DNA of 32,000 nucleotides. Origin: Caldimicrobium thiodismutans (GTDB lineage Bacteria; Desulfobacterota; Thermodesulfobacteria; Thermodesulfobacteriales; Thermodesulfobacteriaceae). Below, one piece after another: positions 9,601 to 26,152 of the stretch. The position numbers and the translations under genes are program-made. The notes beneath the pieces are model-generated. The model was not told the origin of the DNA. It saw only the letters and a program-made list of their open reading frames with translations, and searched no databases. Each line of letters opens with the position of its first letter. Positions within the stretch are counted from its first letter, which is position 1. The stretch lies in NCBI RefSeq assembly GCF_001548275.1, contig NZ_AP014945.1, positions 900,001 to 932,000 of the forward strand, in the 5' to 3' direction.

Positions 9601-10056
9601 AGAAGTGGAAACAAAATGGCTCTTTTAAACTTAGAAGACGAATTTTCCAAACTTAAAGCCTTACTTTTTCCTGAAGTTTACAGGGAATATATGAACCTTC
9701 TCAAAGAATCAGCTCTTTTGTGGTTTAAAGGTTATATAGATAATGAAGAGGATAACTTTACCTTTTTAGTTGAAGAGCTTAAACCCTTTGAAGATTTAAG
9801 TTTTTTCATAGAGGGTATAATGAAACTTCACATAGAACATACCCTAATTACAGAGGAAAACCTCCTGAGAATAAGAGATTCTATAAAAGAGATAGAAGAA
9901 CAAGAAAAAGGTCTTCCATTACGCCTTATTCTTGAATATCCTGATTGTTTAGTGTATTTTGAACCTAATGGGTATAAAATACCCCTAAACCTGGCCTTTC
10001 TTGAAATCTTTCTTGAGAATTTTGAAGGTCTAAAGCTTAAATTTGAGAATATATGA
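6622..10056 (+). CDS. dnaE: DNA polymerase III alpha subunit
   Basis: 1144 aa. The PHP domain begins FVHLHLHTEWSLLDGA, followed by the GPGRGSAAGALTSYALGITNLDP, DIDVDF, QFDM..LGLIKFDFLGL and YRPGP motifs and a C-terminal OB-fold region. GTG start preceded by GGGAGGGGG. Confidence 0.97.
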   Translation: MADFVHLHLHTEWSLLDGAIRIEDLVKRLAEYKMPGCAITDHGTLYGLIHFYNKLRGAGLKPLLGCEFYVAEGSRFQKKTNRKGEAGRHLILIAKNEEGYKNLIKLGSRAYLEGFYYRPRIDKELLMEFHQGLICLSACLEGEIPHLLLQGLMDQAIESAQFYKNLFGEDFYLELQKNGLSEQEKVNTGLLEISEKLGIKVVATADCHYLDKEDAFAHEVLLCIQTGKTLNDTDRFKFNTDQLYLASAEEMEARFNEFPREILENTIEVFEKVNLELKFGTPLFPKARIPEGVTEVDYFIQKAREGLSKRLKELKEKKLLFTEERAYWDRLEMELEVIVEKGYAGYFLIVADFCEWAKSQGIPVGPGRGSAAGALTSYALGITNLDPLRYGLLFERFLNKERPSLPDIDVDFCMEGRDRVIEYVAKTYGESHISKIATFGQMKARQVIRDVGRALGFKPKEIDPIAKMISAGPEVKLFKEVERPELKELMEKNEKIRELFTLALKLEGLPRHASQHAAGVLISSLPLEEITPLMKIEEGDRVAQFDMKACEALGLIKFDFLGLKTLTIIDNTLKALKEYESIDLDLNSLPLDDPKTFKLLQEGETDGVFQLESEGMKDLLRRLRPTDFNDLIAVLALYRPGPLEGGLVEQYIETKHGRRKPEYLHPLLEPILKETYGVIVYQEQVMEIARAFAGYSLGEADLLRRAMGKKDKELMQRLKNDFVERSIERGIPREVAEKVFELMEKFAEYGFNKSHSAAYALLSYQTAYLKAHYPVYFLASILTYEINKSEEVSKYLSLAEKMGIPILPPEINLSSAGFSVEKSAIRIGLQAVKNVGEEAVQEIIRKRPYKDFIDFCQKIDTQKVNRKTIETLIKAGAFDSIEPVRAKLLANLHRILGFTQESKAGSLFGQNNLLNLNLSATLRLEEAPEWSPEEKLNFEKEALGFYLSDHPLRRFRPIVEIFTPFHLDNVKELKNGGKIILCALISEIKLKNTRSGNKMALLNLEDEFSKLKALLFPEVYREYMNLLKESALLWFKGYIDNEEDNFTFLVEELKPFEDLSFFIEGIMKLHIEHTLITEENLLRIRDSIKEIEEQEKGLPLRLILEYPDCLVYFEPNGYKIPLNLAFLEIFLENFEGLKLKFENI

Positions 10057-11426
10057 AACTTTTAGTATTTACTAAAAGAGAAGATTGCCAGATTTATATG
10101 TGTTTGGAGGAACTCTTTCCAAAAAGAAAGATTGAGTTTTATATTTTTAAAGACCTTGCTCCCAGAGAGCTAAAGACAATCTTGAACAGTCATGAGACCA
10201 ACTTGGTGGTCATTGACTACGAAAGTTATCAGGAGAGTGTGGAAGGGCTGATAAAAGAAATCAAGGCCTTAAATTCCAATGCGCATGTTTTAATTGCCAA
10301 TGGTCCAGAAAATGTGGAGCTTGCTATAAAATTACTTAAAGATGGAGCCTATCATTATTTAACTAAGGACTTAGATAAAGAGTGTATTTGCAAATTGATA
10401 GCTGAAATTGGGGGGGCAGAAAGAGATAATAAAGAAATATACCAGGATACGATAAATCGTTTTGTAGGAAAAAATATAAGTATTCAGAAAATAAAAAGTT
10501 TTTTACCCACTATTGCGGAAACCCATTGTAATGTCCTAATTGTTGGAGAGACAGGGACAGGCAAGGAGCTCCTTGCCCGAATTATTCATCAGCTTTCTCC
10601 CAGAAGAAAAGGTCCTTTTATTATTCTTGATTGCACAACCCTTCAGGAAACTATCTTTGAAAGTGAAGTATTTGGATATGAAAAAGGAGCCTTTACCGGA
10701 GCAGTTGGATCCAAAAAGGGTCTTGTTGAACTTGCCGATGGAGGAACCCTTTTTATTGATGAGATTGGGGAACTACCCTTGCCGCTCCAGAAAAAGTTTT
10801 TAAGATTTATTCAAGAAAAGACCTTTATGCGAGTGGGAGGAACCAAAATTTTAAAAGCAGATGTGCGAATAATTGCAGCTACTAATAGAGATTTAGAAGA
10901 GGAAGTGAGATCTGGTAATTTCCGATCTGACCTTTATTTTCGTCTAAATACCTTAATCCTGGAAATTCCTCCCCTCAGAGAGAGACCCGATGATATACCT
11001 CTCTTGGTTGAGCATTTTGTTAAAGTAAAAGCACATGAGCTTAATAGAGACTTTAAAGGTTTCTCTAAAGGTTTTATGGAATCTCTCCTCAAATATCAAT
11101 GGCCAGGTAATGTAAGAGAACTAATAAATATCATTGAGAGAGCCTTAATCCTTTCACCATCAGGATATTTAACAGAGGAGGTTTTGCCTGAAGGTATATT
11201 AAAAAGTCATGAGAAATCCATGCATTCAAGAGAATTGATGGATATTAATGAAGTGGTAAACTTAAAGGAATTTGAAAGGGAACTCGTATTACAAGCTTTA
11301 AAAAAATACAACTGGAATCAAACCAGAACAGCTGAACATCTGGGCATCTCAAGGAAACAGCTCATTAATAAGATGAAAAAATATGGCCTAATTAAAGAAA
11401 AAGATAAGAGTTGGCTTAAAGGTTGA
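10053..11426 (+). CDS. Sigma-54-dependent transcriptional activator (NtrC-family EBP: receiver + AAA+ + Fis-type HTH)
   Basis: Receiver-like N-terminus (LVVIDYES with candidate phospho-Asp, YLTKD Lys). Walker A GETGTGKE, the GAFTGA sigma-54 contact loop exactly, Walker [10 protein letters not shown], and RVGG/RIIAATN. The C-terminal HTH is [25 protein letters not shown]. The start ATG overlaps the dnaE stop (ATGA). Confidence 0.92.
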
Positions 11427-12833
11427 GAAGAAGAGATAAAAACTGAGCAACACCAAAATCAATAGCATAAATATTTCATACAAGTTAATTTTCCTATTGT
11501 TCAGATTTAATGAATCTTCCTTTAAAACAGATAACACCGGAGCTATCAATCTAAAGTAATAATAAAGAGAGAGAATGGAAGCTAAAAGGAAAACTAATGC
11601 AAGAAAATAGGCTCCCTCTTTAACAAGCTGAAGGAGTAAGAAAAGTTTGGTTATAAAGCCAGCACTTGGTGGAAGGCCAGCAAGTGAAAATAGGAGAATC
11701 AGAAAACTCAAAAGAAGGGGAAAACTGACATCTTTTAATCTGTTCCCAAGGCTATCAATAGGGATTTTTATCTCTTTATGATCAACAATAAGAAAGAATC
11801 CAAGAATAATTCCTAAATTGGTTAAAGAATAAATAAAGAGATAGCCATAAAAGAGCTTAAAATTTGTATCAGCCAAGGGTATAGCAAAGAGAGTTAATAA
11901 ATAGCCCATGTGAGAAATGGATGAATAGGCCAGTAATCTTTTAACCTCCTTTTGTTTTAAGGCCAGAAGATTTCCAAGTATCATGGATAAAAGGGAAATT
12001 ATATAAAAAAGGCTTTTAAAAGTTGAAAAAGTTGGGAGGGAAAAAAACCCCGTCTTAAATAAGACCAAGAAAAGATTGCTCAAAAAAAGGGCAAAACCAA
12101 GTTTAGAAAAAACTGCAAGCAGGGGAAAAACTGGGAGGGGACTTCCCTGGTATATCTCTGGAAGCCAAAAATGAAAGGGAGATGCCCCAAGCTTAAAAGC
12201 AAGGGAAGAAAAAATTAGGATAAGGCCTAAAAGAAAATAAATCGTCCTGTTAAGCTGGGTTAATTTACTTAGGGTTTGAAAGAGATTTATCTCAAGAGTA
12301 GCATAGTAAATCAAAAAAAGCCCTGTAAAGAAAAAGATAGAAGAGAGCGTTCCAAGAAAGAAATATTTAAGGCCTGCTTCAATTGAAAGAAGCTCCCTCT
12401 TATAAAAGCTGATCAAAAGATAAAAACTAAAGGAAATAGCCTCCATCAATATAAAGGCCATCAAGAGATTTTGAGAAGAGGCTATGAGAGATAAAAAAGC
12501 AAAGGAGGTCCCAAGAAAAAAGGAATATTCGTTAAGATACCGCTCTTTAAGGAAAAAATTATAAAGAGAGAAATAAAGAACTACACCAAGGCCTAAAAAA
12601 ACTATCCGAAAGAGAAAATGGGCTTTTGTGCTCAACAGATGAGAGGAAAGATCAGTTTTCAAAACTTCTATAGAAAAGGAATTAAGAAGTAAAAAGAAAG
12701 CCAAAATGAAGACAAAGAGAAAGCCCAAATATCTATAAAGATTTTTTTTGATCAAAAGGGAATTTAGAATTAGTATACCAAGAGAAGCACAAGCTAAAAA
12801 AATTTCTGGCAAATAACTTCTCCAAACTTCCAT
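11388..12833 (-). CDS. nuoN: Complex I-like antiporter-like subunit N
   Basis: 481-aa polytopic membrane protein and the last gene of the block. It has the LAYSSISHMGYLL signature typical of NuoN/ND2 and the N-terminal pattern of NuoN. Assigning N versus M rests on position and motif only. Confidence 0.75.
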   Translation of the reverse strand: MEVWRSYLPEIFLACASLGILILNSLLIKKNLYRYLGFLFVFILAFFLLLNSFSIEVLKTDLSSHLLSTKAHFLFRIVFLGLGVVLYFSLYNFFLKERYLNEYSFFLGTSFAFLSLIASSQNLLMAFILMEAISFSFYLLISFYKRELLSIEAGLKYFFLGTLSSIFFFTGLFLIYYATLEINLFQTLSKLTQLNRTIYFLLGLILIFSSLAFKLGASPFHFWLPEIYQGSPLPVFPLLAVFSKLGFALFLSNLFLVLFKTGFFSLPTFSTFKSLFYIISLLSMILGNLLALKQKEVKRLLAYSSISHMGYLLTLFAIPLADTNFKLFYGYLFIYSLTNLGIILGFFLIVDHKEIKIPIDSLGNRLKDVSFPLLLSFLILLFSLAGLPPSAGFITKLFLLLQLVKEGAYFLALVFLLASILSLYYYFRLIAPVLSVLKEDSLNLNNRKINLYEIFMLLILVLLSFYLFFSTFKPTLIFFFN

Positions 12834-14216
12834 TTACACACCTCCCCCTTGGAGAAACTTTATGAGCCAGGAAAGATAGAAAGTTAAGAAAATCACAATA
12901 AGAAAAATTAGAACACTGAAAAAGGTGTAGGAAGGAGAAAGATCTTTTAATGTTTTACTTCCAGGACCTTCTTTTTTTATAAAAATTAACCTGTAAAAAA
13001 CAATAGCTTTATATATTAAATTTACCGCTATTCCAAGGCTTAATAGAAAACCAAAAAGCAGGGAAAATTTGAATACAAAGCTTAACATGGCAAATTCAAG
13101 ATAAAAATATCCAAAAAGGGGGAACCCAGAAAGAACGAGAAGAAAGGTAGTAAAAAAGAAGGTAAAAATTGGCTTAGTAAGAGTAAGAGCTCCATACTCA
13201 TCAATAAAGAGATTACCTGAGGTCCTCTCCATATGATAAACATAGATAAAGAGGGCAAAGGCAAGAAATCCATGAAAAAGACCAAAGGGAACAATAAGAA
13301 AAGGAGAAACATAAGGAAGCATAGCTAAAGATCCTGCAAGCATAACATTAAGATGGCTCATACTCATATAAGTGAAAATCTTTTTAATATCTCTATTTGA
13401 CCAAGCAATATAACCCGCATAAAGTGCTGAAAAGATAGTTAAAAAAAGAAAGATCTCTAAAGATAGAGAAGCCTTTTGGTAAAATCTGTAAAATCCATAA
13501 AGAGCATACTTACTCAAAATACCTGAAAAAATTGCCGTAACAGGGCTTGGAAGATTATAGTAAGTATTCAGAAGCCACCCATGAAGGGGAAAGACAGGAG
13601 TTTTTACCATGATGCCTATGTAGAGAAGACTCGCTATCCATTTGGCCTCATAAAGACCACCAAGCTTAAATTCAAAGGATTGGTTGTATTTGTAAAGAAA
13701 AAGTATTCCCAGTAATAAAAAGATACTAAAACCAAAATTATAAATCAAAAATTCCAGAGCTATTCTTTTTGGGCTTTCTTTGGAAAAATACCAGAGAAGT
13801 AAAGTTGCAGGAATTAACATGGCCTCCCAGAAGATAAAAAAGGTTAAAGTATCTCCAGAAAGAAAAAAAAGATTATTTACACAGAAAAGCATAAGCATAA
13901 GTCCATTAAAAAGATGGCCCTTAAACTCAGATTGCACAAAAAAATATAAAAAAAGATAAAGAAGTAAATTTAGCCAGAGAAAAACTAAGGAGGCCTGATC
14001 AAGTCGGAATTTAAGAAGAAAGCCAAAATCTTTAAAATAAATATATTCTAAAAAAGTGCCCCTCAGGGCAGAGAGGATGTCAGGGATTATCAAAAGAGTC
14101 ATAAAAACTATAAAAATCCTTGTAAACCAGAGGTAATCCCTTTCCTTATCTTTCAGGATGAAGAAAGAAAAAAGAAATCCCAAGAGAGATAAAAGAATAA
14201 ACTCTTTAAACATCAT
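12834..14216 (-). CDS. nuoM: Complex I-like antiporter-like subunit M
   Basis: 460-aa polytopic membrane protein of the NuoL/M/N-MrpA/D superfamily (FWEAMLIP, HGWL, YMSMSHLN). It directly abuts nuoN. Divergent, and very F/L-rich. Confidence 0.7.
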   Translation of the reverse strand: MMFKEFILLSLLGFLFSFFILKDKERDYLWFTRIFIVFMTLLIIPDILSALRGTFLEYIYFKDFGFLLKFRLDQASLVFLWLNLLLYLFLYFFVQSEFKGHLFNGLMLMLFCVNNLFFLSGDTLTFFIFWEAMLIPATLLLWYFSKESPKRIALEFLIYNFGFSIFLLLGILFLYKYNQSFEFKLGGLYEAKWIASLLYIGIMVKTPVFPLHGWLLNTYYNLPSPVTAIFSGILSKYALYGFYRFYQKASLSLEIFLFLTIFSALYAGYIAWSNRDIKKIFTYMSMSHLNVMLAGSLAMLPYVSPFLIVPFGLFHGFLAFALFIYVYHMERTSGNLFIDEYGALTLTKPIFTFFFTTFLLVLSGFPLFGYFYLEFAMLSFVFKFSLLFGFLLSLGIAVNLIYKAIVFYRLIFIKKEGPGSKTLKDLSPSYTFFSVLIFLIVIFLTFYLSWLIKFLQGGGV

Positions 14217-14228
14217 AGCCCATACCCC

Positions 14229-15989
14229 TCAAGAACTAATTAGGCCTAAAAGATAAAAGAAAATAATGGCTAAAACAAAGATCTGGATATACTTAATAAG
14301 GTTTCCATCAAAGATACGGGCCTTTTTTTGGGAAAAGATATAAATACTTTCTGGAAGAGAGCGATTTAGACTAAAAAGAAGCCCGTCATTAAAGGCACAT
14401 AAAAGATTCCTTATGGCAACCAAAAACCTATCCACAAGAGGCTTATAAAATTCTCCTACATATTTATATTCTATGGGTTCTAAAATTCTATGCAGGCCTC
14501 TGTAAATCTGCTTCCCAAGGGTTATGTAAAACCAATCCGTATCAAGATTAATCTTTGGTTTGGGAGCAATATATGAGCGAACAGCAAAAAATACCAGTGC
14601 CACACAGGAAAAGAGAGAAATTACTCCTATGGTATGTTGATAGGTATAGGGCTCATAATGAATTGGATAGGGTAAAAACTGATAGTAAATTCCAGGGAAA
14701 ATCCCAATAAGAATACATAAAAGAGAGGCAATAATCATGGCAAGATGCATATTCCAGGGAAGGGGCTTTATTTCATAAGATCCTTCTTTTCCGAAAAAGA
14801 TATAATAACCCATTTTAAGGACAATGCTGAAGAAGGTTCCTATGGAGGCAAGTTCCATAAGGATATATTCAAAGGGGCGATGAATAAGGGTGGAAGCGTA
14901 AATGGTAATACCCTTTGAGACAAAACCACTGGTTAGGGGAACTCCTGAGATAGAAAGGGCACCTACAAAGAAGTAGAGCGCTATCCAGGGATTCTTCTTA
15001 GCAAAGCCACCAAGGAGATGGATTCTCTCAAGGCCAGTTGCAAAAATGACTGCACCTGCAGACATAAAAAGAAGGCCTTTATATATAATGTGGGCAAAGG
15101 CATGGGCTGAGGCCCCATTTAATGCCAAAGTGCTTCCAAGCCCTGCTCCGCACACCATAAAACCAACCTGACTGATAATATGATAGGAAAGAAGCCTTCT
15201 TGGATTATTTTCAAGGGTTGCGTAAACAACTCCATAAAAAGCCATAATGGCTCCAGCAATAGCCAATATATATTCCCCTGGAAACACCCTTACCAGTGCA
15301 TAAACCGCACTCTTGGTGGTAAAGGCACTAAGAAAGACAGAACCATAAATAGTTGAATTGGGATAGGCATCAGGAAGCCAGGCATTTAAAGGTGGAACCG
15401 CAGCATTAATCACAAAGGCAAAAAGAATTAAAAAATAGGGTAAAGAATAACTTAGAGAACGGAGATTCTCTACAGTAGTTATTCCTTGGTAATACCAGAG
15501 AAATAATATTCCAAGAAGCAAAGACAAACCACTTACCGCATGAACAAGTATATATCTTATAGAGGAAAAATAGGCTTCACGGGTTCTTGCAGAAATAACA
15601 AGAAGAACAGCAAAAACTGCAAGCCCTTCCCAGAAAAGATAATAAGATAACCAATCATAGGCAAAGGCAACTCCTACAGCACAGGCCATGTAAAGAAGAC
15701 CTGCACTTATCTGCAGACGATCTTCCACATGTAAGGCATACAGCAGCCCTATAAAACCAATGAGACTGAATACATAAGCAAAAAAAAGTGAAAGTTTATC
15801 AACTTTTATAAGAAATTCATAATCAAGGATTTTGAAGCCACCATAAATTCCTGGATCAAGCTGGGTAATTATAAAGAAGGTTAAAAGGGCAGTGAAAAGG
15901 GCAAGATAATTCAGACTCTTCCGATAAAAAAAGTAAATAAAAGGGCCAATCAAAAGGGCCAAAAGATTAGGAGGTATAATATCTATCAT
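14229..15989 (-). CDS. Complex I-like subunit L-type antiporter-like protein with C-terminal lateral-helix-like extension
   Basis: Superfamily motifs are present (FWEGLAV, NAWLPDAYP, SYHIISQVGFM). After the antiporter core there is a roughly 110-aa tail: a long charged/amphipathic stretch (DWFYITLGKQIYRGLHRILEPIEYKYVGEFYKPLVDRFLVAIRNLL...) ending in a final TM (IQIFVLAIIFFYLLGLISS). This is the NuoL/MrpA layout. I place the start at the ATG at 15989 (MIDIIPP...), preceded by AAGAAGGAGGAAGACT. The track ORF extends to 16025. Confidence 0.7.
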   Translation of the reverse strand: MIDIIPPNLLALLIGPFIYFFYRKSLNYLALFTALLTFFIITQLDPGIYGGFKILDYEFLIKVDKLSLFFAYVFSLIGFIGLLYALHVEDRLQISAGLLYMACAVGVAFAYDWLSYYLFWEGLAVFAVLLVISARTREAYFSSIRYILVHAVSGLSLLLGILFLWYYQGITTVENLRSLSYSLPYFLILFAFVINAAVPPLNAWLPDAYPNSTIYGSVFLSAFTTKSAVYALVRVFPGEYILAIAGAIMAFYGVVYATLENNPRRLLSYHIISQVGFMVCGAGLGSTLALNGASAHAFAHIIYKGLLFMSAGAVIFATGLERIHLLGGFAKKNPWIALYFFVGALSISGVPLTSGFVSKGITIYASTLIHRPFEYILMELASIGTFFSIVLKMGYYIFFGKEGSYEIKPLPWNMHLAMIIASLLCILIGIFPGIYYQFLPYPIHYEPYTYQHTIGVISLFSCVALVFFAVRSYIAPKPKINLDTDWFYITLGKQIYRGLHRILEPIEYKYVGEFYKPLVDRFLVAIRNLLCAFNDGLLFSLNRSLPESIYIFSQKKARIFDGNLIKYIQIFVLAIIFFYLLGLISS

Positions 15990-16224
15990 AGTCTTCCTCC
16001 TTCTTTGAAACCAGAAGCCCAACAATCTTTACCACTATAAAGAGAAAAAGCGCCCCAAGGATTCCAAAAATTCCCTCAAAAAAGGGAATTTTTTCAAAGG
16101 CAAAATGCTTTTCTTCGTGAAAATAAAATTCTCCCACCATTGAAAGCAAAAAGGCTATAACTACCACTATTAGAGCCTTGAGAAAATTAGGTTTGTCAAT
16201 TTTACCCCACATAGAGCACCTCAA
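15967..16224 (-). CDS. Small two-TM membrane protein, unknown function, embedded between two antiporter-like subunits
   Basis: 85-aa ORF (alternative ATG at 16212) with two hydrophobic helices (ALIVVVIAFLLSMVG and IFGILGALFLFIVVKIVGLLV) and a charged tail. It overlaps both neighbours, consistent with translational coupling. No family recognised. Confidence 0.5.
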   Translation of the reverse strand: MRCSMWGKIDKPNFLKALIVVVIAFLLSMVGEFYFHEEKHFAFEKIPFFEGIFGILGALFLFIVVKIVGLLVSKKEEDYDRYYTS

Positions 16225-17704
16225 TGAGTTTTAGAAGTTGATAGAGCACATCAATTTTTAACGCAAGAATTAGGGTTAAAAGGGCTGTTATAAAAAGGGG
16301 AATGGCACAGAAGTAATTTTCAACCACTTTTTCATAGGGAGTGTAATGGTGGATATCCTTAGGTTGATAGGGTTCTTTAAGAAGAGCCCTGAAAACAATA
16401 GGAAGAAAATAGGCCGCATTTAAAAAGGAACTTAAAAGAAACACCAAAGCCCCAAGAAAAAGACCTGCTTCAAGAGATCCAGAAATAAGGTAAAATTTAC
16501 TCCAGAATCCTATAAATCCAGGAACCCCAACTATACTCAGACTGGCAAGGAAAAAGGCAGTAAAAGTAAGGGGCATCTTCCTTGCAAGACCATTCAATTG
16601 AGGAATCTCAGTGTAATGGGTTGAGACATAGACCGAGCCTGCTGAGAAAAAGAGAGTTATTTTTGAAAAGGCATGGGCAGTAATATGAAGGATACCTCCT
16701 ATTACAGATAAAGGATGAAAAAGGGCTGTTCCAAAAACAATATAGGAAAGCTGGCTTACTGTTGAAAAGGCAAGCCTTGCTTTAAAGTTCTGGCGAGTTA
16801 AGGCAATGGCTGAAGCAATAAGTATGGTAGCAGCGGTAATAAAAAGAATAAATTCCTGTAATCCAAGAGCAAGGATACCCTCCTTTCCAAAGATATTTAA
16901 GAGAACCCTCACATTGGAAAAGGCTCCTGTTTTTACTACGGCAACAGCATGAAGAAGGGCTGAAACAGGAGTTGGAGCAACCATGGCAGAAGGAAGCCAG
17001 CTGTGAAGGGGCATAATAGCACACTTGTTATAGCCATAAAGAAATAAAATAAGAGCTATCTGTAAAGCAAGTTTATGCCCTGTTAACATCTCCTGAGTAA
17101 AGATTCCCTTTTCTGCGTAATCAAGGGTTCCGGAGACATAATAAGTTATTGCCATAGCTGGAATTAAGAAAAGTTTTGCAGTTCCAAGAAGGTAAATTAC
17201 ATATTTTCTTGCTCCCTCAAGGGACTCTTCATCTTCCTTATGTGCCACAAGGGGATAGGTGATAATAGACATAAGCTCATAAAAGAGGAAAAGGGTGAGA
17301 AGATTTCCGGAAAAGGCAACTCCCATGGTGGCTGTAAGGGAAAGGGCAAAGGCTACAAAATAACGGGTCTGCCTTATAGCATGAGTTCCTCTCATATAAC
17401 CTATGGAATAAAAAGTAGTTAAAATCCAAAGAAAGGAGGCCCCAAGAGCAAAAAGGACTCCTAAGGGATCAATAAGAAGTTTTATGGAGATACCCTCATA
17501 GATTTTAAGAATTTCAATGGTATAACTTTTCTTTTCAAGAACAATGGGGACAAGGGCAAGCACAAATAAAAATTTCAAAATCCCTGCAATAACAGAGACT
17601 GCCTCTCTATGATTAGGTCTTTTTTCTCCAAAATAAATGATTAAGGGAACTGCAAGGGCTGAAACAAGAATGGCTCCAATAGGAAAAAAAACCTCACTCT
17701 TCAT
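16202..17704 (-). CDS. Additional antiporter-like subunit (MrpD/NuoM-like) without a lateral-helix tail
   Basis: 500 aa with LFLFYELMSI, HSWLPSAMVAPTPVSALLHA and LAFSTVSQLSYIVF, the core motifs of the NuoL/M/N-MrpA/D superfamily. It sits between nuoK and the L-type gene and overlaps the nuoK 3' end by 11 nt. Confidence 0.75.
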   Translation of the reverse strand: MKSEVFFPIGAILVSALAVPLIIYFGEKRPNHREAVSVIAGILKFLFVLALVPIVLEKKSYTIEILKIYEGISIKLLIDPLGVLFALGASFLWILTTFYSIGYMRGTHAIRQTRYFVAFALSLTATMGVAFSGNLLTLFLFYELMSIITYPLVAHKEDEESLEGARKYVIYLLGTAKLFLIPAMAITYYVSGTLDYAEKGIFTQEMLTGHKLALQIALILFLYGYNKCAIMPLHSWLPSAMVAPTPVSALLHAVAVVKTGAFSNVRVLLNIFGKEGILALGLQEFILFITAATILIASAIALTRQNFKARLAFSTVSQLSYIVFGTALFHPLSVIGGILHITAHAFSKITLFFSAGSVYVSTHYTEIPQLNGLARKMPLTFTAFFLASLSIVGVPGFIGFWSKFYLISGSLEAGLFLGALVFLLSSFLNAAYFLPIVFRALLKEPYQPKDIHHYTPYEKVVENYFCAIPLFITALLTLILALKIDVLYQLLKLIEVLYVG

Positions 17705-18026
17705 CCTTTTCCCCTAATAGCGTTAATTTTTCCATAGAGAGAGTCTTTGTAAGCCGATAATAATTGACCACAAGAATTAAACCTATGGCAAAAGAACCTG
17801 CTGCAATGGCAAGGGTTAAAAGAACAATCATTTTTCCCTTTGGATCTCCGAAATAATGACTTGCTGTAACAAAAAGAAGGTTTATTCCATTAAATACTAC
17901 TTCAAGGGCAAGAATGGCAACAAGTAAATTTCTTTTGAGAATAAATAACCCTATTCCAAGAAAAATAAGAAGTCCTGAAATTACATAAAAGGGATATTCT
18001 GAGGCAAAGACTCTAAGAATCTCCAC
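17694..18026 (-). CDS. nuoK: Complex I-like subunit K
   Basis: Three-TM small protein with LALEVVFNGINLLFV and the AIAAGSFAIGLILVV pattern typical of NuoK/ND4L. I favour the GTG at 18026, preceded by AAGGAGGAAGAAA. The track ORF starts at 18062. Confidence 0.85.
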   Translation of the reverse strand: MEILRVFASEYPFYVISGLLIFLGIGLFILKRNLLVAILALEVVFNGINLLFVTASHYFGDPKGKMIVLLTLAIAAGSFAIGLILVVNYYRLTKTLSMEKLTLLGEKDEE

Positions 18027-18525
18027 TTTCTTCCTCCTTTTTAAAAAAGACATAAAGGGCAACCATGGGAAAACTTAAAATAAAGGCAAGAAGAAAAATC
18101 GCCATCCAATACTCATTAAAGAGAAGAACACTCATTTCCTTCAAATCAAAATAAATTTTGAGAGGAGAATAACTTTCTGGAATTCCCTTTACCAGAACCA
18201 AAAAGAGCAAACAAATAAAAATAGCTATGGGCAAAAAGGAAGTGTATTTTATCCTTTTAAAATCCCCTTTAAGGTCTTTTAATTCCTCTTCAGGGAAAAG
18301 AAAGAGAGTAAAAAGAAACATAACAAGAATTGCCCCTGCATAAACTATCACCTGAATAGCTGCCAGAAATTCAGCATTGAGATAAAGATAAAGAACTCCA
18401 TGAAGAACCATAAGAACAAGGATACACAAAAACTGATACACAAGATGTCTGAAAAAAAAGGTAAAAAAAGTAAAAATAAAGAAAAGACCTGTTAAGATTA
18501 AAAGAGCAATTCCTCTTTCTATCAT
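18013..18525 (-). CDS. nuoJ: Complex I-like subunit J
   Basis: FLAAIQVIVYAGAILVMFLF is the NuoJ/ND6 signature. The ATG at 18525 overlaps the nuoH stop as ATGA. The track ORF uses an upstream GTG at 18540. Confidence 0.8.
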   Translation of the reverse strand: MIERGIALLILTGLFFIFTFFTFFFRHLVYQFLCILVLMVLHGVLYLYLNAEFLAAIQVIVYAGAILVMFLFTLFLFPEEELKDLKGDFKRIKYTSFLPIAIFICLLFLVLVKGIPESYSPLKIYFDLKEMSVLLFNEYWMAIFLLAFILSFPMVALYVFFKKEEESGDS

Positions 18526-19541
18526 CTTAGCATACCCCACTTAAGTATGGCTATCCAGATAAAATTTATCAGGGAAAGAGGTATTAAAACTTTCCAGCTC
18601 ATATTCATAAGCTGGTCAAATCGATATCTGGGAAAAGTAGCCCTAACCCATATATAAAGGAAAATAATGAAATAGACCTTTACAATCAGAATAAGTATTG
18701 GCGGGATACCCTTTAAAAAGGGAAGAAGCCCTGTTAACCAGAAAGGAAGGGTCCACCCACCCAAATAACAAAGACTTATTAAAAGGGCCATAACATACAT
18801 AGAGATGTATTCCCCAAGAAAAAAGATTCCCATTCTAAAACCCGAATATTCTGTGATATATCCAGCAACAAGCTCACTTTCTGCCTCAGGAAGATCAAAG
18901 GGGGCTCTATTGGTTTCAGCAAAAGCACAAATTAGAAACACTATAAAACCGAGAAGCTGGGGAATAGCATTCATTCCAAAAAGGGAACTGGCCTGAGATG
19001 CTACAATGTCCTGAAGTTTAAAAGATTCTGCATAGAGAATAACCCCTGCAAGACTTAAACCCAGAGGTATTTCATAACTTAAAATCTGGGCTGCAGATCG
19101 TAAGCCTCCAAGAAGGGAATATCTTGAACCTGAGGAGTATCCTGCAAGGATTATTCCATAAGTCCCAAGGCCAGCAAAGGCAAGAATTACAAGCACACCT
19201 AAATTTACATCCGCAATATAAAAGGAAGGATGAAAGGGAATAACACTTAAATTGGTAATGGCAAAAATAAGAACCAAAAGGGGAGCCACCTGAAAGATAA
19301 CTCTATGTGCTTCCCGAGGAATAATATCTTCTTTAAAGAGAAGTTTCACAAGATCCGCTATGGGCTGCAAAAGTCCATAGGGACCTACTTCCGTAGGTCC
19401 AAGACGAGCCTGCATCCTACCTATTATCTTTCTCTCAGCATAAACAGTGTAAGCTGCATGAAGCAAGACTATCCCTAAGACTACTGCGATCTTCACCAGA
19501 GTGATCAAAAGGGTCCAAAAAAGCCCCTCATTTAATCCCAT
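18522..19541 (-). CDS. nuoH: Complex I-like subunit H
   Basis: AERKIIGRMQARLGPTEVGPYGLLQPIADLVKLLFKEDIIP, AETNRAPFDLPEAESELVAGY and EYSG are the canonical NuoH/ND1 motifs. Confidence 0.95.
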   Translation of the reverse strand: MGLNEGLFWTLLITLVKIAVVLGIVLLHAAYTVYAERKIIGRMQARLGPTEVGPYGLLQPIADLVKLLFKEDIIPREAHRVIFQVAPLLVLIFAITNLSVIPFHPSFYIADVNLGVLVILAFAGLGTYGIILAGYSSGSRYSLLGGLRSAAQILSYEIPLGLSLAGVILYAESFKLQDIVASQASSLFGMNAIPQLLGFIVFLICAFAETNRAPFDLPEAESELVAGYITEYSGFRMGIFFLGEYISMYVMALLISLCYLGGWTLPFWLTGLLPFLKGIPPILILIVKVYFIIFLYIWVRATFPRYRFDQLMNMSWKVLIPLSLINFIWIAILKWGMLR

Positions 19542-20058
19542 ATTCCTCTAACCTCTTCTTCAATTCTTTAAGCTTTATAAAATCTTCAGGTTTTTCTTCT
19601 GGCTCAAGGGGATAGTCCTTTCTAAGGGGATGCCCTTTCCAGTTCTCTGGAAGAAGTATTCTTTTAAGATTGGGATGCCCCTTAAAGATAATTCCAAAAA
19701 GATCAAAAACTTCCCTTTCAAGAAAATTTGCCCCTGGAAATAAATCTGTAATACTTTCAAGGGAGAGATCCTCTTCAGGAACCTGAACCCTCAATCTTAA
19801 GGCTATACGCTCATTTAGATTGTAAAGCTCATAAACCACTTCAAAACGGGGATTTTTTCTAAGATTGATATAATCAACAGCAGTTAGGGTTTGCAAGTGA
19901 TTAAAACCTTTATCTTTCAGGAATCTTATAAGATCCTTGAGAATCTCCCTGGATCTAATAATTAAATAGGTTTGACCTCTAAATTCTCCCCTTTCCCAGA
20001 GGGCTTCTCTAAAGGTTTCTTCAATTTCTTTAAGAATTTCTGAAAGTTTATCTTTCAT
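19528..20058 (-). CDS. nuoC: Complex I-like subunit C (30-kDa subunit)
   Basis: 176 aa with FEVVYELYNL..RLRV, PGANFLEREVFDLFGI.F.GHP and LRKDYPL, the NuoC signature. Confidence 0.9.
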   Translation of the reverse strand: MKDKLSEILKEIEETFREALWERGEFRGQTYLIIRSREILKDLIRFLKDKGFNHLQTLTAVDYINLRKNPRFEVVYELYNLNERIALRLRVQVPEEDLSLESITDLFPGANFLEREVFDLFGIIFKGHPNLKRILLPENWKGHPLRKDYPLEPEEKPEDFIKLKELKKRLEEYGIK

Positions 20059-20441
20059 AAGCCTTTCTGCCAGTCAAGAAGCCCTTTCTTTAAATCATAA
20101 AAGAAGCCAGCAAAAATAATAATCAAAAAAAGAAGCATAATTGAGAAACCAGAAAAACTTAGCTCCGAAAAACCATAACACCAGGCATAAAGCAAACCCA
20201 CTTCTACATCAAAAACTGCAAAAAGAATGGCTATAGGAAAGTATCTAATGGTTATTCTCTGCCAGGGAAGACCAGTTGGCTCATTTCCACATTCATAGGG
20301 AATAAGCTTGAGAGAATAATAAAATTTAGGTCTTACAAGGGCTCCAAAAATAAGTCCACCCATACCAAAAATAAAAGCAACAATTAGCATAACCAAAATA
20401 GGGAGATAACCTGAGGGAATAAAGTAATCCGGCCTTTCCAT
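20055..20441 (-). CDS. nuoA: Complex I-like subunit A
   Basis: 128 aa, three TM, with YECGNEP and FDVEVGLLY motifs typical of NuoA/ND3. Confidence 0.9.
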   Translation of the reverse strand: MERPDYFIPSGYLPILVMLIVAFIFGMGGLIFGALVRPKFYYSLKLIPYECGNEPTGLPWQRITIRYFPIAILFAVFDVEVGLLYAWCYGFSELSFSGFSIMLLFLIIIFAGFFYDLKKGLLDWQKGL

Positions 20442-20444
20442 TTC

Positions 20445-20999
20445 TTAATCCCTCACCTTTATCAGAATTCCTTCTCTTTTTGGAGCAGGTTTTAAAATCT
20501 CAGGTATTCCTTTAAGGTTCCAGAATTTATTGGTATATACCTTTTCAGGATATTTCTCTATAAATTCATCCCAGTTTTTAAGAAGCCTTTCTTTATCAAA
20601 GATAAGCCCTGCTCTATCCCTTGAAGAATATTCAAACCATTCGGTTAAAACTATAGCTCCAACAGGACAAACCTCTTCACAATACCCACAATAAATGCAT
20701 CTTAAAGCATGGAGATTATATTCAAGCATTTTTCTTGCCCCAGTCTCAGGGTCTACTTCATACCTCACCTCAATACATCTTGAAGGGCATACCTGAACAC
20801 ACTTCAAACAGGCCACACATCTTGCAGTTCCTGTTTCAGGATCCCTCACCAAAGCATGTCTTCCTCTAAAGGAGGGATATACCGTTACTCTTTCTCTTGG
20901 ATACTGAACAGTTACAGGTTTTTTAAAAAAGGTCTTAAGGGTAATTAAAAGCCCACCAAGGAGATCTTTAAAGATAAGATATTTAGGATCCCTTCTCAT
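20445..20999 (-). CDS. nuoI: Complex I-like subunit I (2x[4Fe-4S])
   Basis: Two ferredoxin motifs, CVACLKCVQVCP and CIYCGYCEEVCP, in a NuoI-like context (YPRE...FRG.HAL). Confidence 0.92.
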   Translation of the reverse strand: MRRDPKYLIFKDLLGGLLITLKTFFKKPVTVQYPRERVTVYPSFRGRHALVRDPETGTARCVACLKCVQVCPSRCIEVRYEVDPETGARKMLEYNLHALRCIYCGYCEEVCPVGAIVLTEWFEYSSRDRAGLIFDKERLLKNWDEFIEKYPEKVYTNKFWNLKGIPEILKPAPKREGILIKVRD

Positions 21000-22225
21000 C
21001 TATCGCACTCTCCCATAACAATATCAAGAGTTCCTATTATAGTTACCAAATCAGCAAGAAAATGATCTTGAGTTAATTTTTTTAGAGCAGAAATGTGAAT
21101 AAAAGATGGGGCTCTTATGTGAAGTCTATATGGTCTTCCTGATCCATCACTCACAAGATAAAAGCCAAGCTCCCCCTTTGCCCCTTCAACAGCAGAGTAA
21201 AGTTCTCCTTTGGGAACAATTTCACCTCCCTCATTCAAAAAGGCAATAAGGGTGCTTTCTCCCAAGGCTTCTGCTTTAAAAGCCCTCTTGTAAAGGGGCA
21301 TATCAAGATCAGGGGAAAGTTCTGCACAAACAGGTCCTTCCGGCATCTTTTCAATACACTGTTTGATAATTTTTAAAGATTGCCTCATCTCTTGAAGCCT
21401 CACCCAGTATCTATCATAGGTATCTCCATTTTTACCCACAGGAATTTCAAATTCCACCTCGGGATAGGCATCATAGGGAAAATGCTTTCTTATATCATAG
21501 GGGATGCCAGAACCTCTAAGGGAGGGGCCGGTCAAACCATAAGCCAAAGCCTCATCCCCTGAAATAACACCCACTCCTTTGGTTCTATCAAGCCAGATTC
21601 TATTTTCCGAGAGAAGCCCTTCATATTCCTCAATCTTTGAATACATATAAGGAATAAAGTTATAAATTTCCTCAAGCACTGATTCCTCCACATCCAGTCT
21701 AACTCCACCAATTCTTGGATAGCTAACTGTAAGCCTTGCTCCGCAGATTTTTTCAAAGAAATTGAGAGTCATCTCCCTTTCACGGAAACAATAAAGAAAA
21801 ACAGTCATAGCTCCGATATCTAAAGCATGGGTTGCAAGCCAAAGAAGATGGCTGGCAATTCTTGCAAGTTCACAAACCATGGTGCGCAGATATTTTCCCC
21901 GTGGTGGAGGCTCAATTCCGAGAAGTCTTTCTACTGCAAGGGCATATCCCGTATTATTGTTCATGGCAGAGATATAATCTAATCTGTCTGTAAGAGGTAA
22001 AACCTGGGCATAATTCAGATTTTCAGCAAGTTTCTCAAGACCCCGATGAAGAAAACCTACAACTGGTTCAAGATCAACGATCTTTTCTCCTTCAAGAACA
22101 AGCCTTAATTTCAGCACCCCGTGTGTTGAAGGGTGCTGAGGCCCCATTTGAATTTCAAAGGGAGAGAAAAAGGGATCTTCAACAGAATAGGTAAGCTCTT
22201 TATAAGCTGAGTTCTTTTCTCGCAT
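20996..22225 (-). CDS. nuoD: Complex I-like subunit D (49-kDa, quinone-site type rather than [NiFe] type)
   Basis: [24 protein letters not shown] and C-terminal [10 protein letters not shown]. The CxxC pairs that ligate Ni-Fe in the homologous hydrogenase large subunits are absent. Confidence 0.95.
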
Positions 22226-22676
22226 AAGGGCCCCAGGTTCTTTTCTCCTCGCGAAGCATTTTTCTCAATTCAAGAAGGCCTTCAATCAGGGCTTCAGGCC
22301 TTGGTGGGCATCCAGGCACATAAATATCTACAGGAACTATCTCATCAACTCCCTGAACGGTAGAATAAGTTCTAAATACTCCTCCTGAACAGGCACAGCT
22401 TCCCATGGCAACCACCCATCTGGGATGACTCATCTGGTCATACACCCTTCTTAAAATGGGAGCCATCTTATAGGTGACAGTTCCAGCAACAATTAAGCAA
22501 TCGGACTGTCGGGGAGAGGCTCTAAAGATTATTCCAAACCTGTCAAGATCATTTCGTGCAGCACCAGAGGCCATCATCTCAATAGCACAACAGGCAAGCC
22601 CAAAGGTAACAGGCCAGAGAGACCCTGCCCTTGCCCAGTTTATTAAGTCATCAAGTTTACCAAGAAAAAGCTCCAT
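22200..22676 (-). CDS. nuoB: Complex I-like subunit B (N2 cluster)
   Basis: [24 protein letters not shown] and [12 protein letters not shown] place the start at the ATG at 22676 ([10 protein letters not shown]...), preceded by AAGGAGAAAATT. The track ORF's 43-aa N-terminal extension would overlap the upstream ferredoxin gene and shows no NuoB-like sequence. Confidence 0.93.
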
Positions 22677-22696
22677 AATTTTCTCCTTGATTTCTT

Positions 22697-23215
22697 CTAC
22701 CAGAGAAGGGCTTTTAGATTTTCTACAATTTTTTGAGCATATTGCTCCCTTGTCTTTCTTGTAGCTTCCTCGGGAAGAACAAAGGAAAGACAAGAAGTTG
22801 TGCATCCCTCAACACAGGCAGGCTTCTCGCCTCTATCAAGGCGATGCATACAGAGATGACACTTAAAAACCTTTCCTGTTTCAGGATTCCACTGGGGAAT
22901 CCCCCAGGGACAGGCCTTCATACAGGACTTACACCCAATACAAAGCTCATCCCTCACATAGACAATTCCATCTTTTTCCCTTCTTGTCATTGCTCCTGTT
23001 GGGCAAGCCCTCACACAAAAGGCATCCTCACAGTGAAAACAATTCATATAAACAAAATAAATTCTTGGAATCCCATTTACATCCTTTGGTCCAACAGGTA
23101 GAATATCACAAAACCTTGGACCAATTGGCAAATTATTCTCAACCTTACAATGAACCACACAGGCAAGGCAACCAATACATTTTCTTTGGTTCTGAGTTAT
23201 CACATATTCGCTCAT
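22697..23215 (-). CDS. 4x[4Fe-4S] ferredoxin-like electron-transfer subunit (PsrB/DmsB/HycB class, short form)
   Basis: 172 aa with four Cys groups: [37 protein letters not shown] and [18 protein letters not shown]. No signal peptide and no TM segment. Confidence 0.9.
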
Positions 23216-23229
23216 CTTTACCCTCCAGG

Positions 23230-25311: not shown

Positions 25312-25330
25312 AAAAAAACCTCCTTCTTTT

Positions 25331-26152
25331 TTATTTCACAATTAAAACTGGCCTGTCAGTTTTGCTGACTACATCTTCAGCTACACTTCCAAAAATTATT
25401 TTTTGCATGCCCTTTAACCCTCTATTTCCCATAACAATAAAATCGAGATCCTTTTGTTTGGCTATTTCAAGAATTAACTGGGAAGGGCTTCCTCTATACA
25501 AAAGAGATTCTGAAGAAACCCCCTCTTTGAGGGTAAACTTTTTAGCTTCATCTAAGACCTTTTTAGCTTTATCTTCTCCAAATTTATCAGTGATAACAGA
25601 GAGAAGATAAAGAGTTAATTCCAGTTTCTTAGAAAACTTAGTGGCAAATTCTAAAGCTTTGAGAGAGACCTCTGAACCATCTACTGCACAGAGAATACCT
25701 TGTCCTCTAATTTCACTTGTCCGGGGACATATTAATACGGGACATTTCACCTTGGGTATAACTCCAAGAGTTGCACTTCCTATGAAATGTTTAGCAAGAC
25801 CTCGTATACCCCTTCGACCCATTACAATTAAATCTGCCTGAATCTTCTCAGCTGATTCTGCAATGCCAGCTTCAATGCTTTCACTCATAGGAAATAAACC
25901 CTCAACAGATATTCCTTCCTTAGAAGCCTGCTCTTTCAATCTATCTAAAATAGCTCTTGCCTTACTTAGCATAGTCTCAGTATCTCTTGGAACCATGGTG
26001 AAATGTTCAGGATTATAGTAAATTACATGACACACATAAAAAGTCTTGACTCCACATTTCTTACTTAAATACAAAGCTATCCTCTCTGCCCCACTTGAAT
26101 ATTCTGATCCATCTGTTGACACCAAAATTTTGCATAGAGTAAGTTCTCCCAT
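25331..26152 (-). CDS. Tandem universal stress protein (2x UspA domain)
   Basis: 273 aa. Two Usp domains, each with the ATP-binding-type motif G-x2-G-x9-G(S/T): MGRRGIRGLAKHFIGSAT and MGNRGLKGMQKIIFGSVA. It is the first gene of the minus-strand block, 19 nt upstream of the Mo-enzyme gene. Confidence 0.9.
   Translation of the reverse strand: MGELTLCKILVSTDGSEYSSGAERIALYLSKKCGVKTFYVCHVIYYNPEHFTMVPRDTETMLSKARAILDRLKEQASKEGISVEGLFPMSESIEAGIAESAEKIQADLIVMGRRGIRGLAKHFIGSATLGVIPKVKCPVLICPRTSEIRGQGILCAVDGSEVSLKALEFATKFSKKLELTLYLLSVITDKFGEDKAKKVLDEAKKFTLKEGVSSESLLYRGSPSQLILEIAKQKDLDFIVMGNRGLKGMQKIIFGSVAEDVVSKTDRPVLIVK

Follow-up and report, generated by a model that had tools for sequence, protein, structure and literature searches.

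A Phs/Psr-type molybdoenzyme as the probable redox partner of a complex I lacking NuoEFG in Caldimicrobium thiodismutans

Complex I-like enzymes that are built from 11 core subunits and lack the NADH-oxidising N module (NuoE, NuoF and NuoG) occur in Desulfitobacterium, in many sulfate reducers and, as NDH-1, in cyanobacteria. A systematic search found no designated partner for such complexes (PMC3144371), the literature views them as a platform on which various donors can dock (PMC3144371, PMC11238625), and the electron donor of the 11-subunit complex is still called unknown (PMC11238625, PMC12142623). NuoEFG-less complexes with an unknown partner are also held by bacteria that disproportionate sulfur compounds (PMC4911364, PMC12142623), and Caldimicrobium is a genus of thermophilic disproportionators of such compounds (PMC4911364, PMC9751629). 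The present study concerns a 32,000-nucleotide stretch of the Caldimicrobium thiodismutans genome (contig NZ_AP014945.1, positions 900,001 to 932,000; hereafter the window), in which the genes of a NuoEFG-less complex I are preceded, in the same operon, by those of a molybdoenzyme of the Psr/Phs (polysulfide/thiosulfate reductase) type. We propose that this molybdoenzyme is probably the redox partner of the NADH-module-less complex I in sulfur-metabolising anaerobes.

In the formate hydrogenlyase of E. coli (FHL-1, composed of FdhF, HycB, HycF/G/E and membrane subunits), a ferredoxin-like subunit with four clusters links a cytoplasmic MopB-family enzyme to the NuoI/NuoB/NuoD-homologous arm of a complex I-like complex, with HycB bridging FdhF to the NuoI homologue. 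The closest solved and curated relatives of the catalytic and iron-sulfur (FeS) subunits encoded in the window belong to PsrABC of Thermus thermophilus (PDB 2vpw) and PhsABC of Salmonella, and the same thermodynamic problem is met in all of them, namely that of menaquinol reducing a low-potential sulfur couple. The relevant potentials are about -74 mV for menaquinone, -320 mV for NAD(P)H, -402 mV for thiosulfate/(sulfite + sulfide) and -270 mV for sulfur/sulfide; in Salmonella PhsABC, menaquinol reduces thiosulfate in a thermodynamically uphill reaction, for which Stoffels et al. 2012 is cited (PMC13490349). PhsAB-like enzymes have also been described in the disproportionators Dissulfuribacter thermophilus and Desulfolithobacter dissulfuricans. 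Their abundance rises in thiosulfate disproportionation, and they have been suggested to cleave thiosulfate in the cytoplasm (PMC13490349, PMC9751629).

The operon consists of 16 consecutive open reading frames (ORFs) on the minus strand, at positions 11388-26152, which were taken from the ORF listing and assigned with Pfam and NCBIfam (Table 1). Their order is usp, the catalytic subunit of the molybdoenzyme (MopB), its FeS subunit, nuoB-D-I-A-C-H-J-K, an extra antiporter-like gene, a gene for a small protein with two transmembrane (TM) segments, a nuoL-like gene, nuoM and nuoN. All 11 core subunits, NuoA-D and NuoH-N, were thus identified in the block. After refinement of the start codons, no intergenic gap exceeds 20 nt. 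Overlaps occur at nine junctions, and at three of these (nuoD/I, nuoA/C and nuoH/J) the overlap is exactly 4 nt. The most likely start of nuoB is the ATG at 22676, which has an AAGGAG motif ahead of it and the stop codon of the FeS gene 20 nt before it. Terminator-like sites within the block are at chance level (24, against 18.5 +/- 4.9 expected), and none was found at its gene junctions, that between the FeS gene and nuoB included. The annotation covered 26 of the 47 listed ORFs of the window (16 in the block and 10 flanking; the ORF at 30450-31730 was left out of the scan), and no member of the NuoE, NuoF, NuoG or NrfD/PsrC families was detected among these 26.

An earlier note on this DNA, prepared from the letters and a list of ORFs, had described the same 16-gene block, with gaps of 20 nt or less and with neither nuoE/F/G nor an NrfD/PsrC anchor gene in the window. 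All the ORFs were confirmed at their coordinates and in their families, the gap limit stands after start refinement, and both absences hold among the 26 annotated ORFs. The overlapping junctions that it reported are also present, whereas its count of four 4-nt overlaps is reduced to three. A terminator between the FeS gene and nuoB, which it had named as a sign of separate transcription, did not appear in the scan.

Like the other 11-subunit enzymes, the complex encoded here has 11 core subunits and no N module. It differs from them in that the operon itself encodes a specific candidate partner, in its gene order (B-D-I-A-C-H-J-K), and in the insertion of an extra L-type subunit and the small two-TM protein. 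With the 14-subunit Nuo it shares NuoA-D and NuoH-N, a quinone-type NuoD and an N2-bearing NuoB; NuoE, NuoF and NuoG, however, are absent from the operon and from related clusters, and there are four antiporter-like subunits instead of three.

The MopB protein contains the Molybdop_Fe4S4, Molybdopterin and Molydop_binding domains of Pfam. Its best NCBIfam model is PhsA (NF012032), with 543 bits, under the model's cut-off of 694 but ahead by 300 bits of the next-best families, Fdh-alpha (243 bits) and DmsA (~240 bits). The best PDB match is T. thermophilus PsrA (2vpw_A, 380 bits). Cys136 aligns with Cys173 of PsrA, the ligand of the molybdenum. Neither this residue nor any of the four cysteines of the FS0 cluster (C11, C14, C18 and C45) varies among 20 homologues. 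The closest homologues, at 84-99% identity, come from metagenome-assembled genomes (MAGs) of Caldimicrobium, C. thiodismutans included. The N-terminus reads MTEKKVVYSLCCMC and has no Tat leader, since the alignments begin at position 40 of the PhsA model and at residue 36 of PsrA, past the leader of either reference; the earlier note had likewise seen no export leader on this enzyme. The FeS subunit contains 16 cluster cysteines in four complete motifs, the first of which begins 12 residues after the start of the protein. It scores 138 bits against the DmsB family of NCBIfam, and its PDB matches are PsrB (2vpw_B, E=3e-28), which is the closest, and HycB (7z0s_B, E=1.5e-11).

Because the Mo ligand and the cluster motifs are intact and the Tat leader is absent, the two proteins are read as an apparently active, cytoplasmic, anchorless A-B pair of the Psr/Phs type. 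Unlike PsrABC and PhsABC, which are periplasmic, the window enzyme carries no Tat signal and has no NrfD/PsrC anchor, and its coupling to quinone would go through Nuo. In having A and B subunits, no Tat leader and no C subunit, it is like the PhsAB-like enzymes of D. thermophilus and D. dissulfuricans as these are described; there, in contrast, the enzyme is treated as soluble and disconnected from quinone, and the adjacent nuo genes are unmentioned (PMC13490349, PMC9751629). Variants of the pair include a natural fusion of MopB with its own FeS subunit in a single polypeptide (P0041, 847 aa) and a tandem duplicate, MopB-FeS-MopB-FeS, in a MAG of 'Ca. Desulfacyla' (L076, 10001-15400).

Other identities of the catalytic subunit were considered and rejected. 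A formate dehydrogenase is contradicted by the scores (243 bits for Fdh-alpha against 543 for PhsA) and by the residue that follows the Mo ligand, which is Ser here and His in formate dehydrogenases; the corresponding pair is Cys-Ser in the window enzyme, as opposed to SeCys/Cys-His in the formate dehydrogenase of FHL-1. An inert protein of the NuoG/QrcB kind is contradicted by the invariant Mo-ligand and FS0 cysteines. The earlier note had put forward sulfite oxidation of the Soe type, which finds no support here: the best families are PhsA and PsrA, the length is 693 aa, a SoeC-like or NrfD-like anchor is absent and a TtrS-like sensor kinase is encoded alongside, although likeness to SoeA was not scored directly, as the model libraries returned no SoeA model.

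In the peripheral arm, NuoB keeps the ligands of cluster N2 (a CC pair and two further cysteines). The cysteines of NuoD are located at positions 118, 146, 161, 290, 300 and 407; the terminal CxxC motifs that bind NiFe are absent, and the protein ends in ...DIVMGECDR, with the canonical ...GECDR terminus. A hydrogenase is thereby rejected, and the earlier assignment of NuoD to the quinone type is borne out by the equivalog score and by the missing CxxC motifs. The same feature sets the complex apart from the group 4 membrane-bound [NiFe] hydrogenases and from FHL-1. The likeness to FHL-1 lies in the coupling of a cytoplasmic MopB enzyme through a four-cluster subunit onto the NuoI/NuoB/NuoD arm, here predicted from the genes; since NuoD lacks the NiFe cysteines, the other substrate would be menaquinone, and not protons as in FHL-1. 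At another locus (L155, 1939-3360), the NuoD gene is apparently interrupted by an insertion of ~110 aa, which has weak similarity to two-cluster ferredoxin domains (2746-2997).

NuoI carries two CxxCxxCxxxCP motifs, followed by a C-terminal extension with the pattern LLxNWDxF..YxNxFWxxxG..P..KR (residues ~145-184). The extension is common to every MopB-linked nuo cluster examined, across phyla, whereas three NuoI proteins from elsewhere do not have it. Identity to the window NuoI is 46-55% in MopB-linked clusters across phyla, compared with 31-44% in the others.

The distribution of the pair was assessed by scanning one genome per GTDB species, which yielded 80 loci. In 77 of these, a tblastn match to the FeS subunit lies directly downstream of MopB. 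All neighbouring ORFs were clustered and representatives annotated with Pfam, and partners were then counted in the ~59 loci whose sequence continues for 2.5 kb or more past MopB. A GltD/DPD-like FAD/FeS protein is the neighbour in 37 of the ~59 loci, four of which have NuoE/NuoF-like genes as well, and three more have NuoE-like and NuoF-like neighbours only, bringing the NAD(P)H modules to 40. Nuo genes are the neighbours in 11 of the ~59 loci, and in none are nuo genes and an NAD(P)H module found together beside the pair. Such exclusivity would be expected if Nuo took the place of the NAD(P)H module as the redox partner. In a neighbour-joining tree, the nuo-linked MopB proteins do not group together but fall at three or more positions among the NAD(P)H-linked members. 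No NrfD/PsrC anchor was found among the annotated conserved neighbour clusters or in the Pfam-annotated loci L161-L167. A metagenome scan with NuoD returned only nuo clusters that start with nuoA-B-C-D, at 47-65% identity. In Desulfoglaeba, the partner of the pair is a single 1134-aa fusion of NuoF and GltD.

The adjacency of MopB, FeS and nuo genes takes five arrangements, in the Thermodesulfobacteriota, Thermodesulfobiota, Bacillota and Nitrospirota; nuoEFG is absent from the MopB-linked nuo clusters of all five. The first arrangement (FeS-nuoB-D-I-A-C-H-J-K-X-small-L'-M-N, where X is the extra L-type gene) occurs in three named phyla: in the window and six other Caldimicrobium/Thermodesulfobacteriota loci as well as L016, in Thermodesulfobium acidiphilum (Thermodesulfobiota), and on a contig with the FeS protein of Thermodesulfitimonas autotrophica (Bacillota). 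The second (FeS-nuoA-B-C-D-H-I-J-K-L-M-N, with three antiporter-like subunits) is found in a Thermodesulfobacteria MAG and in Desulfobulbus MAGs, the latter with a gap of 4 nt between the FeS gene and nuoA; a locus that reads FeS-nuoA-nuoB up to the end of its contig (L067) was grouped with it. In the third, present in two Nitrospirota MAGs (L051, 9992-14374; L054, 9626-14220), MopB-FeS-NuoD-NuoI is followed by unrelated genes, with no nuoB or membrane-subunit genes nearby. This layout suggests that these NuoD and NuoI proteins are specialised paralogues of the quinone (Q) module, which may swap into a Nuo encoded elsewhere. In the fourth (L047), nuoH...N stands upstream of TauE-MopB-FeS, and in the fifth (Desulfovulcanus), TauE-x-nuoABCDHI is divergent from MopB-FeS. 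The arrangement is therefore not unique to this genome: the linkage that the earlier note had seen in a single genome is a module that recurs in others, over at least four named phyla.

That a molybdoenzyme operon merely happens to lie upstream of an unrelated nuo operon would agree with the ~85% of sampled loci of the family that are not beside nuo. We give this explanation almost no credence, since the linkage extends over at least four named phyla, five arrangements and two Nuo architectures, the FeS/nuoB junction has no terminator-like site, and the proteins co-vary in published proteomics. The latter concern D. dissulfuricans, in which PhsA-1 (GF1_30490) and PhsB-1 (GF1_30500) are followed by NuoA, B, C and D (GF1_30510-30540), NuoI (GF1_30560) and NuoJ (GF1_30570). 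NuoA and NuoB were detected only in thiosulfate disproportionation, and the normalised spectral abundance factors (NSAF) of NuoC, NuoD and NuoJ were 2-3x higher in thiosulfate disproportionation than in sulfate reduction (PMC9751629). To the authors of that study the missing PhsC was a puzzle, and no connection between Phs and Nuo was drawn (PMC9751629). The Desulfobulbus MAG loci L161 and L162 match these tags both in their upstream context and in the order phsAB-nuoABCD. Taken together, the recurrent adjacency, the exclusivity of nuo and NAD(P)H neighbours and the proteomics of thiosulfate disproportionation back the proposal of the earlier note that the A-B pair stands in for NuoEFG, and they substantially strengthen its idea that an EFG-less complex I is served here by a different redox module.

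Several observations weigh against the proposal and against a stable docking of the pair on Nuo. The NuoI extension also occurs at L155, without MopB directly upstream. In D. thermophilus, the PhsAB-like genes (DITHS69_2027/2028) are far from the nuo genes (2265-2274) (PMC13490349). The Thermodesulfitimonas-type locus L164 is identical to the window at 76% of positions in NuoB, 65% in NuoD, 58% in the extra subunit and 50% in MopB; among the blocks of the same order it has the most similar Nuo subunits and the least similar MopB, an incongruence which implies that the modules have partly separate histories and suggests, on sequence grounds, that the catalytic pair was exchanged in the history of this locus while the adjacency was kept. 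Finally, the alignments of FeS and of MopB contain no column by which nuo-linked and NAD(P)H-linked members can be told apart, so that a co-evolved docking surface on the catalytic pair is not visible, and none of the 120 closest homologues of FeS is fused to a Nuo protein.

An alternative is that Nuo and the pair, though related in function, are physically separate enzymes: Nuo would be a generic ferredoxin:menaquinone oxidoreductase, the usual assumption for 11-subunit complexes, and MopB-FeS a soluble thiosulfate or polysulfide reductase served by a diffusible ferredoxin or another carrier, with the clustering reflecting co-regulation only. In its favour are the lack of nuo-specific residues in MopB and FeS, the lack of fusion proteins, the published view that various donors can dock on the 11-subunit complex (PMC3144371, PMC11238625), and the fact that the Nuo and Phs/Psr genes are unlinked in D. 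thermophilus and in Desulfurivibrio dismutans. The gene spacing argues the other way (the FeS gene and the nuo gene next to it are 4-20 nt apart in the window and in Desulfobulbus, and there is a 17-nt overlap of the FeS and nuo gene calls in L164), as do the conservation of the whole block in the same order in three phyla and the strict exclusivity of nuo and NAD(P)H neighbours. The MopB-FeS-NuoD-NuoI unit of the Nitrospirota, moreover, is difficult to account for unless the pair touches the Q module directly. We consider the separation into two enzymes rather unlikely, and a dedicated functional partnership between Phs/Psr and Nuo, by comparison, to be likely.

The membrane arm of the complex is a full complex I arm, in distinction to that of FHL-1. 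Four proteins of the block contain Proton_antipo_M, compared with three (L, M and N) in the 14-subunit Nuo, and the 'five-module' pump of the earlier note is corrected to four antiporter-like subunits together with the NuoH/A/J/K channel. The best PDB matches of the extra subunit are NdhF, MbhH and NuoL; it has no lateral helix and retains the Glu of TM5, the Lys of TM7, the HxxxHxxxK motif and the Lys of TM12. The NuoL-like protein measures ~586 aa from the ATG at 15989 (the 598-aa ORF extends over 14229-16025), and its residues 71-587 align to residues 65-597 of T. thermophilus Nqo12, the lateral helix being of normal length. In this protein the TM7 Lys is replaced by Asn, while it is kept in the other three antiporter-like subunits. 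According to PMC6606698, the 2M type of complex I (Chadwick et al. 2018) has a second NuoM and a lengthened NuoL helix. The window complex is like this type in its four antiporter-like subunits and in the absence of nuoEFG, which is also frequent there. Going by that description, it is set apart by an extra subunit of the L/MrpA type, a normal lateral helix and the small two-TM protein, and membership was rejected because the extra subunit carries PF00662 and HxxxHxxxK and the NuoL-like protein aligns to Nqo12 without an insertion.

The small two-TM protein has no match to a Pfam or NCBIfam family or in the PDB. ORFs of 74-93 aa occupy its position in L003, L016, L042, L103, L164 and L167, as does an 83-aa hypothetical protein in D. 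dismutans (RS03560). Sequence similarity to the window protein is seen in L002, L003, L005, L006, L007, L016, L042 and L164, whereas the equivalence in L103, L167 and D. dismutans is by position and size only. The module nuoK-extra L-type-small-L' occurs without an adjacent MopB in L103 (11684-19822) and in D. dismutans (RS03555-03565), in clusters with the gene order A-B-C(D)-H-I-J-K (RS03515-03575 in the latter). Because such four-antiporter clusters lacking an adjacent MopB exist, and MopB-linked clusters with only three antiporter-like subunits exist as well, the molybdoenzyme and the extra subunit do not depend on each other's presence. The nuo cluster of D. dismutans is reported to be strongly up-regulated in sulfur disproportionation, and its fourth antiporter-like subunit is unremarked in the accessible part of the report (PMC12142623).

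Both flanks of the block contain genes of interest on the plus strand. The divergent permease of the TauE/SafE family is split into a protein of 436 aa, which includes an N-terminal domain of ~290 aa, and a separate one of 130 aa; the N-terminal domain has no family match and is probably extracytoplasmic. The gene for the first half of TauE flanks MopB-FeS in 54 of the 80 loci, followed by the small second gene. On the other side, the sensor region of the hybrid kinase scores 155 bits against the TtrS model of NCBIfam, below its cut-off, and similar sensor and kinase genes adjoin MopB-FeS at other loci. The cluster homologous to the sigma-54 activator is represented in 19 related loci, and both the kinase and the activator resemble regulators that adjoin the pair in other lineages. 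The region between usp and TauE contains two weak matches resembling a -24/-12 element, and no conserved sigma-54 element of this kind was found at up to 2 mismatches in 78 related upstream regions. Tandem Usp genes at MopB loci are confined to Caldimicrobium, while Nitrospirota loci have a single-domain Usp instead. The TtrS-like sensor, the TauE permease and the regulators point to a sulfur oxyanion, e.g. thiosulfate, as the substrate or as the signal.

Table 1. Coordinates and assignments of the annotated features, listed by position in the window (TM, transmembrane; RBS, ribosome-binding site; bisPGD, bis(pyranopterin guanine dinucleotide))
Feature	Position	Strand	Assignment and remarks
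Hybrid sensor kinase with TtrS-like PhnD-type periplasmic sensor; likely regulator	4061..6601	+	Phosphonate-bd, HATPase_c, Response_reg
dnaE	6622-10056	+	Between hybrid kinase and sigma-54 activator
Sigma-54-dependent activator; likely regulator	10053..11426	+	Pfam Sigma54_activat, HTH_8
nuoN	11388..12833	-	Proton_antipo_M, 183 bits; conserved Glu, Lys, Lys, Lys
nuoM	12834..14216	-	NDH_I_M, 166 bits; TM12 Glu, NuoM-like
nuoL-like, C-terminal lateral helix and terminal TM	14229..15989	-	NF009310, 597 bits, above cut-off
Small two-TM protein, ~81 aa (81-85)	15967..16212	-	Two hydrophobic segments; between two L-type genes
Extra antiporter-like subunit, NuoL/MrpA type, 500 aa	16202..17704	-	Proton_antipo_N (PF00662) and Proton_antipo_M
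nuoK	17694..18026	-	Pfam Oxidored_q2; probable GTG start at 18026 after AAAGGAGG
nuoJ	18013..18525	-	Pfam Oxidored_q3; ATG at 18525, 4-nt overlap with nuoH
nuoH	18522..19541	-	Pfam NADHdh, 399 bits
nuoC	19528..20058	-	Pfam Complex1_30kDa
nuoA	20055..20441	-	Pfam Oxidored_q4
nuoI, ~40-aa C-terminal extension	20445..20999	-	NuoI families above cut-off
nuoD, quinone type	20996..22225	-	NuoD equivalog, 517 bits (cut-off 360)
nuoB	22200..22676	-	NuoB subfamily, 247 bits, above cut-off; RBS
Four-[4Fe-4S] electron-transfer subunit, 172 aa, PsrB/DmsB/HycB-like	22697..23215	-	Pfam Fer4_11
Psr/Phs-type Mo/W-bisPGD catalytic subunit (MopB), 693 aa	23230..25311	-	Pfam PF04879, PF00384, PF01568
Tandem Usp, first gene of the block	25331..26152	-	Pfam Usp, two stretches; 19 nt upstream of mopB
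Split TauE/SafE-family permease, divergent	26410-27720 and 27733-28125	+	Pfam TauE, first and second half respectively
hslV, hslU (proteasome-like protease with its AAA+ ATPase; housekeeping)	28587-30446	+	Downstream of the permease genes

On this basis we propose that the operon encodes a single redox system, whose catalytic part would be the cytoplasmic PsrA/PhsA-type molybdoenzyme with its four-cluster FeS subunit, and that the pair exchanges electrons with the menaquinone pool by way of the complex I-like module that lacks NuoEFG. Like HycB in formate hydrogenlyase, the FeS subunit would deliver electrons to the clusters of NuoI and NuoB or withdraw them from there. The likeliest substrate couple is thiosulfate/(sulfite + sulfide), at ~-400 mV, with polysulfide/sulfide as the alternative. 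Menaquinol would be oxidised at NuoD/H, and its electrons would pass uphill through N2 and NuoI to the FeS subunit and the Mo site. The uphill step of 0.2-0.33 V would be paid for by an inward flow of protons through the four antiporter-like subunits, i.e., by reverse electron transport; by our own arithmetic, 4-5 H+ per 2 e- at ~150 mV can bridge up to 0.3-0.375 V. The split TauE-family permease may move the sulfur anion, and the TtrS-like kinase and sigma-54 activator probably regulate the system. Thiosulfate reduction by PhsABC was reportedly found by Stoffels et al. (2012) to be driven by the proton-motive force, and thiosulfate disproportionation was reportedly found to be uncoupler-sensitive by Kramer and Cypionka (1989).

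The direction from quinol to substrate is favoured because the partner dichotomy described above fits a low-potential couple: at -270 to -400 mV, NAD(P)H could serve directly, whereas menaquinol needs energy coupling. A further point to be set against this mechanism is its cost, since by our estimate 4-5 H+ per 2 e- looks expensive relative to the small free energy of thiosulfate disproportionation. The same complex might instead run forward, as in the pump imagined by the earlier note, with a low-potential sulfur donor (sulfite, sulfide plus sulfite yielding thiosulfate, or sulfide yielding polysulfide) being oxidised and its electrons passing through FeS, NuoI and NuoB to menaquinone while protons are pumped outward. 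This version draws on the same linkage evidence as the reverse direction that we favour; complex I is reversible in principle, more energy would be gained with the extra antiporter-like subunit when the donor is at -400 mV or lower, and up-regulation of Nuo proteins has been seen in sulfur disproportionation under energy limitation (PMC12142623). The enzyme, however, falls in the reductase-type Psr/Phs group and in no known group of sulfite dehydrogenases, the physiological thiosulfate and polysulfide couples are, by our estimate, probably too positive for 4-5 H+ per 2 e-, and the NAD(P)H wiring of the same pair in most lineages fits an NAD(P)H-fed reductase more simply. We regard the forward direction as distinctly unlikely. 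To the full mechanism, a menaquinone-linked thiosulfate/polysulfide oxidoreductase coupled to the proton-motive force and most likely working from quinol to substrate, we would give an even chance. A stronger version, in which the active Psr/Phs-type MopB-FeS is stably bound to NuoI/NuoD where the degenerate MopB-like NuoG otherwise sits, thus forming a proton-motive-force-driven menaquinol:thiosulfate (or polysulfide) reductase, is put forward only tentatively, and we think it more doubtful than the partnership itself.

No published proposal of a Phs/Psr-Nuo complex was found in the literature covered, which included neither Chadwick et al. (2018) nor Pereira et al. (2011), and as far as found there the module was previously unrecognised. 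It bears on the question of what donates to, or accepts electrons from, the widespread NuoEFG-less 11-subunit complex I, and on the membrane connection of the 'anchorless' cytoplasmic PhsAB-like enzyme (PMC9751629, PMC13490349). It also bears on how electrons are lifted from the level of menaquinone and adenosine phosphosulfate (APS) reductase (~-60 to -75 mV) to that of thiosulfate or sulfur (-270 to -400 mV). If the proposal is true, the molybdoenzyme would be the first designated partner of an 11-subunit complex I, and the complex would represent the missing machine for reverse electron transport in the disproportionation of sulfur compounds and in chemolithotrophic thiosulfate reduction. 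It would also be a living analogue of the ancestral state that gave rise to NuoG; an active molybdoenzyme on the Q module, if confirmed, would illustrate a way in which the degenerate MopB protein NuoG may have become part of complex I.

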